DNA of 64,000 nucleotides. Source: Candidatus Omnitrophota bacterium (GTDB lineage Bacteria > Omnitrophota > Gorgyraeia > Gygaellales > Profunditerraquicolaceae). Location of the stretch: positions 334,501 to 398,500 of the forward strand of contig QZKH01000002.1 in NCBI GenBank assembly GCA_003598025.1. The letters run 5' to 3'. The translations under genes were made by a program, and so were the position numbers. Shown here piece after piece: positions 11,225-60,534 of the stretch (within the stretch, counting starts at the first letter, position 1; every line of letters starts with the position of its first letter). A model generated the notes under the pieces. That model did no database searches. It was given only the letters and a program-made list of their open reading frames with translations, and was not told the origin of the DNA.

Positions 11225-11253
11225 TTGACAAGACAGGATTTTTATAATAAAAT
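11225..11253 (+). promoter_or_regulatory. Candidate sigma70 promoter (TTGACA-17-TAAAAT) for the rib leader
   Basis: TTGACA at 11225-11230 and TAAAAT at 11248-11253, directly upstream of the riboswitch P1 strand. Confidence 0.45.
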
Positions 11254-11330
11254 TATACCCATCTTCAGGGCTCTGCCAGAAGATGGCAGATCTGCCGTAA
11301 AAGGCAGAAGGTGTAAATCCTGACCGGCGG

Positions 11331-11574
11331 TTGCGCAGAAGCGCACACTGATGCTTCCGATAGCATCATGTGTCAGCGCAGAAGCGCACACTGATGCGCA
11401 TATAGCGTGCCAGGCGAAAGTCCGCAAGCCTTAAAAAGGCATGAACCGGTGTAATACCGGTACCGATGGTTGCGCAGAAGCGCACACTGACGCATCATAT
11501 AGCGTCAGGTGTTGCGCAGTGTTACACGCCGGGTTTTCCTTTTAAACCGGGTGTTAACGCAGAAGCGCACACTG
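11331..11574 (+). repeat. Four copies of a ~20-nt hairpin repeat 'TGCGCAGAAGCGCACACTGA' (copies at 11331, 11375, 11470 and 11557) inside the riboswitch
   Basis: Direct reading of the sequence. Each copy holds the 5-bp hairpin TGCGC-AGAA-GCGCA. Two copies are followed by a second repeat 'GCGCAT(CAT)ATAGCG(T/C)CAGGTGTTGC', which recurs at 11750-11778 just before the ribBA RBS. Confidence 0.8.
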
Positions 11575-11623
11575 ACTCACCGAGTTGGTGCAAAGTCCAG
11601 ATGGGAGAAGATAAAAACTTATA

Positions 11624-11650
11624 CCCGAAGATTATCTTCGGGTTTTTTGT
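11624..11650 (+). terminator. Rho-independent terminator, the riboswitch expression platform
   Basis: 'CCCGAAGA-tta-TCTTCGGG' forms an 8-bp stem and is followed by 'TTTTTTGTTG'. Confidence 0.8.
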
Positions 11651-11806
11651 TGCAGAGGCAACACACTGGACTATCCTTTAAGTCCAGGTGTAACAGAGGC
11701 AACATACACCTTGCCCAATATGATGGGCAAGTGTGCGTCTCTACGCTACTGGCGCATCATATAGCGCCAGGTGTTGCATAATCTAAATACCTTAACGGAG
11801 AAGCAA

Positions 11807-13015
11807 ATGTTTAATAATATCACAGAAATATTAGAGGATCTTAAAAACGGCAAGATGGTCATAGTCATCGATGACGAAGACCGTGAAAATGAAGGCGATC
11901 TGCTTATTGCCGCATCTTTTGCCAAGGCAGAAGACATAAATTTTATGGCTAAATATGCAAGAGGCTTGATCTGCGTGCCTATGGAAGAAGAGAGACTAAA
12001 ATTTTTAAATCTGCAACCTATGCTTGAGCGTTCAGCGCCTTTCACAAAGAAAGATCCGTTTTCCACAGCATGGGTTATTTCGGTTGATGCTGCTAAGGGG
12101 ATAACTACCGGAATTTCAGCCCATGATAGGTCTATTACGATAGCCGCACTTATTAACCCTCAATCCCATCCGGAGGACCTGATACGGCCCGGTCATCTTT
12201 TCCCTCTTAAGTCTGCAGAGGGGGGGGTTTTGGTAAGAGCAGGGCATACTGAAGCAGCCGTAGATTTGATGAGATTGAGCGGGCTTTACCCGGCAGGCGT
12301 AATTTGCGAAATAATGAACGATGACGGCTCAATGGCAAGGCTGCCCGAACTGCTTAAATTCAGCAAAGAGCATAATTTAAGAATATGTTCCATAGCAGAT
12401 TTGATAAAATACCGCAGGCATTTCGAAAAATTAGTAGAGAGAATAGCGCGGGCAGCTCTTCCTACGCCGTTCGGTACTTTTGAATTAGTGCTTTATCAAG
12501 ATTCCATAGCTAAACAGACCAATGTAGCTTTAATTATGGGGGAATTGAATAATGATCCTATATTGGTAAGGGTGCATTCCGCATGCCTTACAGGCGATAT
12601 CTTTGGGTCTTTGCGATGTGATTGCGGGCGGCAATTAAATAAGGCCATGGAGATAATCGGCAAGGAAAAAAGAGGGGTTATCCTTTACATGAACCAGGAA
12701 GGAAGGGGCATCGGTCTTATTGATAAAATAAAGGCCTATAGCCTGCAGGAGAAAGGGCTTGATACCGTAGAGGCAAATGAAGCCTTGGGCCATAAAGCAG
12801 ACCTGAGGGACTATGGTATAGGAGCGCAAATATTAGCGGACCTTGGAGTAAAAAATATAAGGCTTATAACAAATAATCCGAGGAAAATCGTAGGGCTGGA
12901 AGGGCATGGTTTGAAAATAATAGACCGTGTTCCGTTAGAGGTTGAGCCAAACCCTATTAATTATAAATATCTGAAAACAAAAAAAGATAAACTTGGGCAC
13001 CAATTAACTTTATAG
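11807..13015 (+). CDS. ribBA: Bifunctional 3,4-dihydroxy-2-butanone-4-phosphate synthase / GTP cyclohydrolase II
   Basis: DHBP synthase 'DDEDRENEGDL' and 'RAGHTEAAVDL'. GTP cyclohydrolase II 'CLTGDIFGSLRCDCG' and 'NQEGRGIGL'. Start at 11807 follows a GGAGAAG RBS. The track start at 11771 is an over-extension. Confidence 0.92.
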   Translation: MFNNITEILEDLKNGKMVIVIDDEDRENEGDLLIAASFAKAEDINFMAKYARGLICVPMEEERLKFLNLQPMLERSAPFTKKDPFSTAWVISVDAAKGITTGISAHDRSITIAALINPQSHPEDLIRPGHLFPLKSAEGGVLVRAGHTEAAVDLMRLSGLYPAGVICEIMNDDGSMARLPELLKFSKEHNLRICSIADLIKYRRHFEKLVERIARAALPTPFGTFELVLYQDSIAKQTNVALIMGELNNDPILVRVHSACLTGDIFGSLRCDCGRQLNKAMEIIGKEKRGVILYMNQEGRGIGLIDKIKAYSLQEKGLDTVEANEALGHKADLRDYGIGAQILADLGVKNIRLITNNPRKIVGLEGHGLKIIDRVPLEVEPNPINYKYLKTKKDKLGHQLTL

Positions 13016-25860: not shown

Positions 25861-25920
25861 CAATAATCCAACCCTTTCATACTACCCATTGTAATATAAA
25901 CAGTTAAATAAAATTATGTC

Positions 25921-25949
25921 TTGACAAAGTGGCTAATTTTATCTATACT
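25921..25949 (+). promoter_or_regulatory. Sigma70-type promoter (TTGACA-17-TATACT) of the mraZ/dcw operon
   Basis: TTGACA at 25921-25926 and TATACT at 25944-25949. Confidence 0.6.
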
Positions 25950-25982
25950 CGTTTCAAAGTGGAGTAAAGTGGAGTAAAGTGG
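25926..25982 (+). promoter_or_regulatory. MraZ operator: four AAAGTGG direct repeats, three of them in a 10-bp-phased array
   Basis: AAAGTGG at 25926 overlaps the -35 element. Further copies sit at 25956, 25966 and 25976 with exact 10-bp periodicity, just downstream of the -10. The motif matches the MraZ-box consensus AAAGTG[G/T] described for Mollicutes/Firmicutes. Confidence 0.7.
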
Positions 25983-26142
25983 ATTAGAAGCAATTTGTGC
26001 CATGTCGGTGATACAAATTGCGATATCTAATTATTCGCTTTTATCTGTTTATTCGCTTGATTTTAGGTATTAATCTAAGAAGAAAGGGGGAGTTTAGCTT
26101 ACGTTAAGAAAAACATTATATTACGTAGGTTAACGCTCGCTT

Positions 26143-60321: not shown

Positions 60322-60425
60322 GGGCTATAAGAAATAGATAGGCTGGTTTATGGTTGATGGTTCAAAGTTGATGGAGCTTGCATAAATTCTATTAACTATG
60401 AACTACGAACTATGAACATTGAGCC

Positions 60426-60447
60426 ACGCTTGCCGAGAGGCAAGCGT
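60426..60447 (+). other. Stable RNA hairpin (9-bp stem, GNRA-type GAGA loop) without a U-tract
   Basis: 'ACGCTTGCC-GAGA-GGCAAGCGT'. It lies downstream of the rSAM gene and upstream of the GGDEF-gene promoter. Confidence 0.4.
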
Positions 60448-60458
60448 TAACAAAACTA

Positions 60459-60487
60459 TTGCTACATATCAGGTTATAGTATATAAT
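60459..60487 (+). promoter_or_regulatory. Sigma70-type promoter (TTGCTA-17-TATAAT)
   Basis: TTGCTA at 60459-60464 and TATAAT at 60482-60487. An RBS 'CAGGGGGA' sits before the ATG at 60535. Confidence 0.5.
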
Positions 60488-60534
60488 TATTTTGAATATT
60501 ATAATATAAGCAGTAAAAACAGGGGGATAATATA

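Follow-up and report, generated by a model that had tools for sequence, protein, structure and literature searches.

How can an RNA element that is about two and a half times as long as other members of its class still be one FMN riboswitch, and what are the repeated hairpins that account for the excess? The question is raised by the leader of a rib operon in the window, that is, the whole stretch of 64,000 nucleotides analyzed here. A preliminary description of this leader proposed that the hairpins are either a small invasive repetitive element or an additional layer of regulation. By combining the anatomy of the leader with that of its relatives, it is possible to propose a third explanation, which we consider reasonably probable: the leader is an FMN-sensing terminator riboswitch of the rib operon, and the hairpins are peripheral expansions, specific to the clade, which are tolerated by the aptamer and have spread by local duplication.

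The position of the element is that of a flavin riboswitch with an expression platform. The first gene of the operon, ribBA, starts with the ATG at 11807 and stops at 13015 of the forward strand, and is preceded by the Shine-Dalgarno (SD) sequence GGAG at 11797-800. Its product, which is identical to RJP29782.1 and shares 70-78% identity with proteins from Candidatus Omnitrophota MAGs, contains a DHBP_synthase domain (1.3e-82) and a GTP_cyclohydro2 domain (9.8e-73). The genes are ordered ribBA-ribH-nusB-PHP-ribD-ribE, the last one encoding a lumazine-binding protein of the ribE type, and the relatives share the synteny of CinA/LigT followed by ribBA-ribH-nusB-PHP-ribD. Upstream of the aptamer, the forward strand carries a sigma-70-like promoter at 11225-11253 (TTGACA, a 17-nt spacer and TAAAAT), which matches the consensus at 11 of 12 positions and explains why 11225, the coordinate at which the feature was reported to start, falls on the -35 box. 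The TTGACAAG box of this promoter is also found upstream of the aptamer in relatives. Transcription would start at about 11260-11262, A11261 being a likelier first nucleotide than C11259-60. Three open reading frames overlapping the leader (11466-681, 11509-781 and 11242-427) were taken as spurious because they cross the aptamer.

Judged from its sequence, the region 11261-11612 is a single genuine FMN (vitamin B2) riboswitch aptamer. Its length of 352 nt, close to the earlier estimate of about 350 nt, compares with a model length of 138 for RF00050 and a usual length of about 100-140 nt; insertions at three surface-exposed sites make up 240 nt and leave a core of 112 nt. On the forward strand, the core begins with the P1 5' strand AUCUUC (11261-66) and J1/2 AGGGC (11267-71), a stretch complementary to 11624-32 that would double as the anti-terminator strand. 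P2 with its T-loop L2 (AGG-UGUAAAU-CCU), J2/3 GACCG, the 5' strand of P3 (GCGG) and position 1 of the L3 receptor, U11331, then occupy 11309-11331, with ACCGGCGGU at 11323-31. After the second insertion, the segment 11416-11470 contains the rest of the L3 receptor (GAAA+GU), the 3' strand of P3 (CCGC), J3/4 AAG, P4 (11428-40), P5 with its T-loop L5 UGUAAUA (11445-61), J5/6 ACCGA, the 5' strand of P6 (UGG) and position 1 of the L6 receptor, U11470, which ends the motif CCGAUGGU (11463-70). The core is completed at 11591-11612 by the rest of the L6 receptor (CAAA+GU), the 3' strand of P6 (CCA), J6/1 GAUGG and the P1 3' strand GAGAAGAU, the last motif being AGUCCAGAUGGGAGAAGAU at 11594-612. All these motifs occur once each and in the expected order, as the preliminary description had stated for the RFN cores. 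Both T-loops conform to (YGNRA)NY, apart from an atypical A at position 7 of L5, and both receptors to UNANA plus two nucleotides, in the form U[84 nt]GAAA-GU at L3 and U[120 nt]CAAA-GU at L6, and the AC for the auxiliary helices is found at 11323-24 and 11462-63.

When 11272-11307, 11332-11415 and 11471-11590 are excised, the remaining 112 nt align over their full length with eight Rfam-verified relatives (92-110 bits) and are nearly identical to the aptamer of one of them, L006. The alignment folds as P1-P6 with 27 consensus pairs, 10 of which show compensatory changes; the P1 pairs are kept and covary in the relatives, and every column that is invariant in the relatives is kept in the window core. 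The roughly 2.5-fold length of the element and the likeness of its L3 and L6 regions, which are 84% identical over 51 nt with their flanks included, might be taken as signs of two tandem aptamers that arose by duplication, an outcome the preliminary description had asked to be checked. P1, P2, P4 and P5, however, appear once each in the core alignment, so that only one complete aptamer is present, and the likeness of L3 and L6 is accounted for by the known pseudo-symmetry of the aptamer together with a shared inserted module. Because every core element is single, a tandem duplication is ruled out with near certainty, and the earlier alternative of one aptamer with insertions stands.

The insertions also account for the behavior of the locus in standard annotation. 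At the Rfam gathering threshold (66.2 bits), the whole window yields only a tRNA and no FMN match. With an E-value threshold, RF00050 gives a local match at 11309-11480 (32.9 bits, E=1.2e-5, model positions 17-125), whose alignment contains an 87-nt gap in the P3 loop; the score falls short of 66.2 bits because of the three insertions. The proposed cmsearch check is thus answered by a significant local match and by none at the gathering score.

One of the three insertions differs from the others. It is 37 nt long (11272-11308, forward strand), lies at the border of J1/2 and P2 and consists of two abutting hairpins with identical stems, UCUGCC-AGAAGAU-GGCAGA at 11272-90 and UCUGCC-GUAAAA-GGCAGA at 11291-308, with predicted energies of -8.3 and -9.7 kcal/mol. 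None of the other 27 aptamers in the comparison has an insertion at this border. In the first hairpin, the loop AGAAGAU copies the P1 3' strand (GAAGAU). An alternative hairpin, in which 11259-69 with the P1 5' strand pairs with 11276-86, is predicted at -14.9 kcal/mol vs -10.5 kcal/mol for the insertion hairpin; it wins only in a transcript that starts no later than 11259, and from A11261 the insertion hairpin wins. The loop of 11272-90 may be a decoy for P1, may guard the P1 strand or may have no role. The pair of hairpins is unlike those of the module described below and had been overlooked earlier.

These peculiarities bear on whether the aptamer is still at work. A decaying relic, in a lineage that has lost or relaxed FMN control, could be expected to score under the Rfam threshold, to have a short P1 (6 bp), to acquire a unique insertion with a P1 decoy and to deviate at conserved positions, such as position 7 of the L5 T-loop (11450-11456, UGUAAUA), which is A instead of the U present in about 98.5% of FMN riboswitches, and J3/4, which reads CCGCAAG with A for the usual G at 11426. 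The score, the 6-bp P1, the A at L5 position 7 and the J1/2-P2 insertion, which is unique to the window, adjoins the junction and has a first loop that can trap the P1 5' strand, also count against the terminator riboswitch with tolerated expansions that is proposed here. On the other hand, all the invariant core columns are kept, the terminator and the anti-terminator are still complementary, and the insertions are all compact hairpins at sites where the flanks can rejoin. Moreover, the J3/4 variant also occurs in L004 (the only other case among 28 aptamers compared), and L006 likewise has a P1 of 6 bp. Decay is therefore an improbable explanation of the locus.

The other two insertions are built from a common unit. 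The 20-mer TGCGCAGAAGCGCACACTGA, which the preliminary description had reported as a fourfold hairpin repeat, occurs at 11332, 11375, 11471 and 11556 with 0, 1, 0 and 2 mismatches and nowhere else in the 64 kb; its partner, a 26-mer, indeed recurs downstream, with copies at 11490 and 11752. Shuffled sequences give 0 occurrences of either. The 20-mer makes up the 5' half of a larger module, which measures about 42 nt and consists of two hairpins, hpA and hpB. In hpA, a GC-rich stem of 4-6 bp is closed by a purine-rich loop of 4-5 nt (AGAA, GCAA, ACAA or GUAA), a type that can be written GCGC-tetraloop-GCGC. It is directly followed by hpB, which has the form CAC(C/U)-stem-loop-stem-(G)GUG and usually contains one bulged base. 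The insertion in L3 (84 nt, 11332-11415, forward strand) comprises module W1 at 11332-73 and a degenerate module W2 at 11375-11415/17, which score 52.7 and 25.1 bits with a covariance model of the module and whose hairpins are present in every predicted fold. The insertion in L6 (120 nt, 11471-11590, forward strand) comprises W3 at 11471-512 (59.9 bits) and W4 at 11513-90, of which the part 11556-91 scores 18.2 bits; in the predicted folds, W4 has a hairpin nested in the loop of hpA (about 11520-58) and its hpB at 11570-90. The repeats had previously been assigned to P2/P3 and to the region between P5 and the 3' strand of P1; the P3 loop is correct and P2 is not, the actual sites being the loops L3 and L6.

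The covariance model was built from 14 seed copies, chosen by eye and with a filter that required pairing, and it recovers seven more copies, some of them in loci fetched after the model had been built. Among the 21 copies, 95.8% of the cells are paired and 13 of the 14 pairs have changed on both sides, compared with 19-58% paired in shifted-register controls. G-U pairs are nearly absent from the stems of these copies, which fits the arms of DNA palindromes at least as well as drift at the RNA level. For the modules and the spacer, Rfam contains no known family and returns only sub-threshold look-alikes of terminators.

The sites of insertion are best understood from the tertiary structure of the aptamer. 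In FMN riboswitches, the loops L3 and L6 serve as receptors for the T-loops L2 and L5 (bioRxiv 10.1101/2022.12.26.521914). The terminal-loop receptor consists of UNANA and two bulged nucleotides, its position 2 being flipped out to the solvent; an internal-loop receptor (IL-TLR) with the consensus URA/RA is common at L3 (bioRxiv 10.1101/2022.12.26.521914). The IL-TLR was 'never observed in the L2-L6 interaction' (Hansen et al., bioRxiv 10.1101/2022.12.26.521914), and a plain terminal loop is always present at L6, possibly owing to constraints on the folding rate (bioRxiv 10.1101/2022.12.26.521914). Both in the window and in the relatives, receptor position 1 is invariably followed directly by the insertion, in the form U^[insertion]NAAA-GY, at L3 and L6 alike. 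An IL-TLR would have U-R-A, a helix, and R-A with two bulged nucleotides; here the insertion precedes all the adenines. Since hpA starts right after the U and NAAA-GY is wholly 3', the Omnitrophota form reads as a terminal-loop receptor that is split at its solvent-exposed position and not as an IL-TLR. The canonical IL-TLR form, UAA-helix-AA-GC, is found in L032 and L050. Insertions of 15-158 nt in L6 were found in 10 of about 19 members of the clade and in one (L070) of about 10 aptamers sampled outside it. They contradict the published rule that L6 is always a plain terminal loop, to which the present locus is a natural counter-example.

The expansion of the aptamer, which had been called unusual for this riboswitch class, is so in general but is common in this clade of Omnitrophota. 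The module is present at corresponding sites in at least eleven rib leaders (L001, L002, L007-L010, L012, L014, L117, L119 and L120): in L3 of L001, L007, L009, L010, L012, L014, L117 and L119, in L6 of L007, L008 and L120, and in P4 of L002 and L010. The FMN aptamers of the clade range continuously from 107 to 361 nt, and that of the window measures 347 nt on the same scale. The aptamer of L012 (2188-2548, about 361 nt) is longer, with insertions of about 86 nt in L3 and about 158 nt in L6, and also falls below the Rfam gathering score. The copy number, the orientation and the site of the module (L3, P4, L6 or spacer) vary freely among the relatives. In L120, the L6 insertion (2637-2739) holds one forward and one inverted module, the latter (2697-2739) scoring on the minus strand. 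No relevant report emerged from literature searches on riboswitch expansion segments or on the FMN riboswitches of Omnitrophota.

Several of the relatives carry further hairpins outside the aptamer. Two hairpins with the stem CGCCA..UGGCG lie between the P1 3' strand and the terminator of L120 (2762-2810), so that insertions of hairpin pairs are not confined to the aptamer. The spacers of L118 (880-1170) and L120 (2840-3005; L121 is identical) share, within the 170-280 nt that follow the terminator, the conserved hairpin ACTTATGGA..AG.GAACATAAGT, for which no Rfam family was matched. The 3' arm of this hairpin is a perfect complement of ACTTATGTTC, the region of the ribBA start, in which no SD can be seen, and the hairpin may, from this complementarity, be one half of a start-codon sequestor/anti-sequestor pair. 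The element is tandemly duplicated in L118 (about 95 nt), and a similar hairpin occurs inside the L6 insertion of L012.

The recurrence of near-identical units at several sites calls to mind dispersed mobile palindromes. REP and BIME clusters occupy non-coding DNA and are formed by short, bulged, imperfect palindromes that occur in either orientation. A family of REP/BIME or MITE type that has landed in permissive loops would explain why the copies of the module are nearly identical, why they are clustered imperfect palindromes and why they occur in both orientations, as they do in the window (11706-47) and in L120 (2697-2739). Such a family should also have many unrelated intergenic copies, and these were not found in the 64 kb or in the flanks of the relatives. 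With filters off, the covariance model of the module finds nothing better than E=6 in the window outside 11332-11774; the other intergenic DNA of the window amounts to about 1.2 kb. In about 600 kb of loci, which include the flanks of about 20 Omnitrophota loci, every match with E<0.01 lies inside a rib leader. The sole outside match comes from L011, whose ribBA-ribH spacer contains an hpB-like hairpin at 1301-1346 (ACAC-U-CCGCGC...GCGCGG-GUGU; 22.9 bits, E=0.04), a weak point in favor of dispersal. Metagenome-wide, an exact 18-mer has 37 matches, of which 36 are chance matches in GC-rich coding DNA; the one real match is L117, another FMN riboswitch with the identical 20-mer at L3. Other intergenic regions of the window have repeats of different kinds: GTTCACA / GTGAAC heptamer arrays forming a long imperfect palindrome at 1507-1646 (fold z-score -7.3 on the plus strand), which is unrelated to the module, ATGGTT/GAACTA arrays at 60322-60534 (z-score -6.8), and three occurrences of AAAGTGGAGT at 25861-26142 (z-score -4.4). 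The idea of a small invasive element that is dispersed through the genome is accordingly not borne out by the 64 kb of this genome and the flanks of the relatives, and we regard a mobile family as quite unlikely, slightly more so than decay.

The aptamer is followed by the clean intrinsic terminator noted earlier (11623-11649, forward strand), in which ACCCGAAGA-UUA-UCUUCGGGU forms a GC-rich stem of 9 bp (11623-43) ahead of a U-run. AUCUUC-A-GGG (11261-70) is the complement of the 5' arm of this stem, CCCGAAGAU (11624-32), a design that is common to the relatives. In forced folds, the aptamer with the terminator is predicted at -162.8 kcal/mol and the anti-terminator form at -161.5 kcal/mol, with the modules folded alike in both. 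The SD (GGAG, 11797-800) is predicted to be unpaired whatever the modules do. Sequestration of the SD by the spacer was considered and is not predicted in the folds; control would then be exerted through termination alone. There is a resemblance between AAAATTATACCC (11249-11260), which precedes the P1 5' strand, and AAACTTATACCC (11615-11626), which precedes the terminator 5' arm; it may be due to chance or may be a trace of the origin of the platform.

Repeats fill the whole spacer from the terminator to the SD. The copies at 11648-11777 are W5 in forward orientation (11648-91), a partial hpA (11692-704), an inverted module (11706-47) and a forward copy with hpB (11734-77), and they score 33.6, 52.8 (11706-47, on the minus strand) and 27.9 bits. 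The inverted copy, which the earlier account had not included, has the loop AAUAUGAU, the reverse complement of the AUCAUAUU-type loops. The downstream copy of the 26-mer, at 11752, had been described as abutting the ribBA SD; it ends 19 nt upstream of it. Long-range pairing between the aptamer insert and this copy had been suggested as a regulatory device. The two copies, however, are direct repeats and gain nothing by co-folding: 11488-11515 paired with 11750-11778 is predicted at -20.8 kcal/mol vs -19.7 kcal/mol for the separate hairpins. The inverted copy behaves differently in such predictions, as a duplex of 11469-512 with 11706-49 reaches about -47 kcal/mol vs -38.3 kcal/mol for the two self-folded forms. 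This complementarity is probably a by-product of the inversion, although it might form a second regulatory layer.

It is conceivable that the module is a selected functional domain, serving as a brace for the stability or the folding of the receptor loops, as a docking site for a protein or another RNA, or as the partner in a long-range switch; in one variant, the inverted copy at 11706-47 would invade the aptamer modules in read-through transcripts, for which the predicted stability of the duplex is an argument. The module might, with the same modest probability, represent a selected fourth architecture of the T-loop receptor, in which the terminal-loop receptor is split after position 1. At the receptors, the module is positioned with precision and symmetry. 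Between species, hpA with CAC is strongly conserved and the stems of hpB covary; hpA with CACUG is identical in L117, where the exact 20-mer is found, and nearly identical in L119 and L001. This conservation is far better than neutral drift predicts, and it is what keeps a functional module alive as a minor possibility. Yet L003, L006 and L015, which are close relatives, lack the module and still score 101-110 bits as FMN aptamers. The free variation of its copy number, orientation and site also speaks against a function, as do the inverted copies, which suit DNA palindromes but not a sequence-specific RNA domain, and the SD, which is predicted to be free regardless. A functional module is therefore doubtful, and decay and a dispersed mobile family are less likely still.

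Returning to tolerated expansions of a terminator riboswitch, the following course of events can be proposed. When FMN is bound, P1 would close (11261-66 with 11607-12) and the terminator (11623-43) would form. When FMN is not bound, the P1 5' strand and J1/2 would pair with the terminator 5' arm, leading to read-through. A pair of hairpins without a linker would stack as one nicked helix whose ends meet, and because stacking returns both ends together, such a pair could replace a single solvent-exposed position. The module would have been inherited within the Omnitrophota clade and would multiply locally in the DNA by tandem duplication, by inversion and by copying between L3 and L6, the flanks of which are nearly identical, with some copies spilling into the spacer after the terminator. 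Spread at the DNA level is supported by the inverted copies in the window spacer and in L6 of L120, by the 84% identity of L3 and L6 and by the scarcity of G-U pairs. Only compact hairpin pairs at sites with rejoinable flanks would survive selection. The copies can thus be thought of as 'expansion segments', which are probably at most mildly stabilizing and lie outside the switch.

The locus indicates that a T-loop receptor can be extended in a manner not described before. It suggests that a small ligand-sensing RNA can bear 240 nt of extra structure at three sites, in the manner of the expansion segments of rRNA, which is relevant to the folding of riboswitches during transcription and, as permissive insertion sites are identified, to the engineering of aptamers. 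It also bears on annotation, since hairpin-expanded aptamers score below the Rfam threshold and so are missed. If the module should prove to be selected, these RNAs would be the first riboswitches in nature whose expansion domains have a function, L6 being among the sites.

Compared with known systems, the element resembles RF00050 in its P1-P6 core, its L2 and L5 T-loops, its L3 and L6 receptors, its position before rib genes and its terminator platform. It differs from that family in its length (352 vs about 100-140 nt), in its score below the gathering threshold and in the large insertions that interrupt the two receptor loops and the border of J1/2 and P2. Like the present receptors, the IL-TLR known from FMN and cobalamin riboswitches sends a helix outward from a receptor loop on the RNA surface. 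In the IL-TLR, however, one helix follows three 5' nucleotides and is reported never to have been observed at L6, whereas the aptamers described here have two or four hairpins inserted, directly after the U, and at L6 as well. With REP and BIME clusters the module shares its clustered imperfect palindromes in both orientations; unlike them, it showed no genome-wide dispersal, its copies having been found only in rib leaders. The expansion segments of rRNA, including those of bacterial and archaeal 5S rRNA (PMC7812874), are likewise lineage-specific surface helices that leave the layout of the core intact; in the present case the host is a small cis-regulatory aptamer, and the units are a defined, repeated two-hairpin module.
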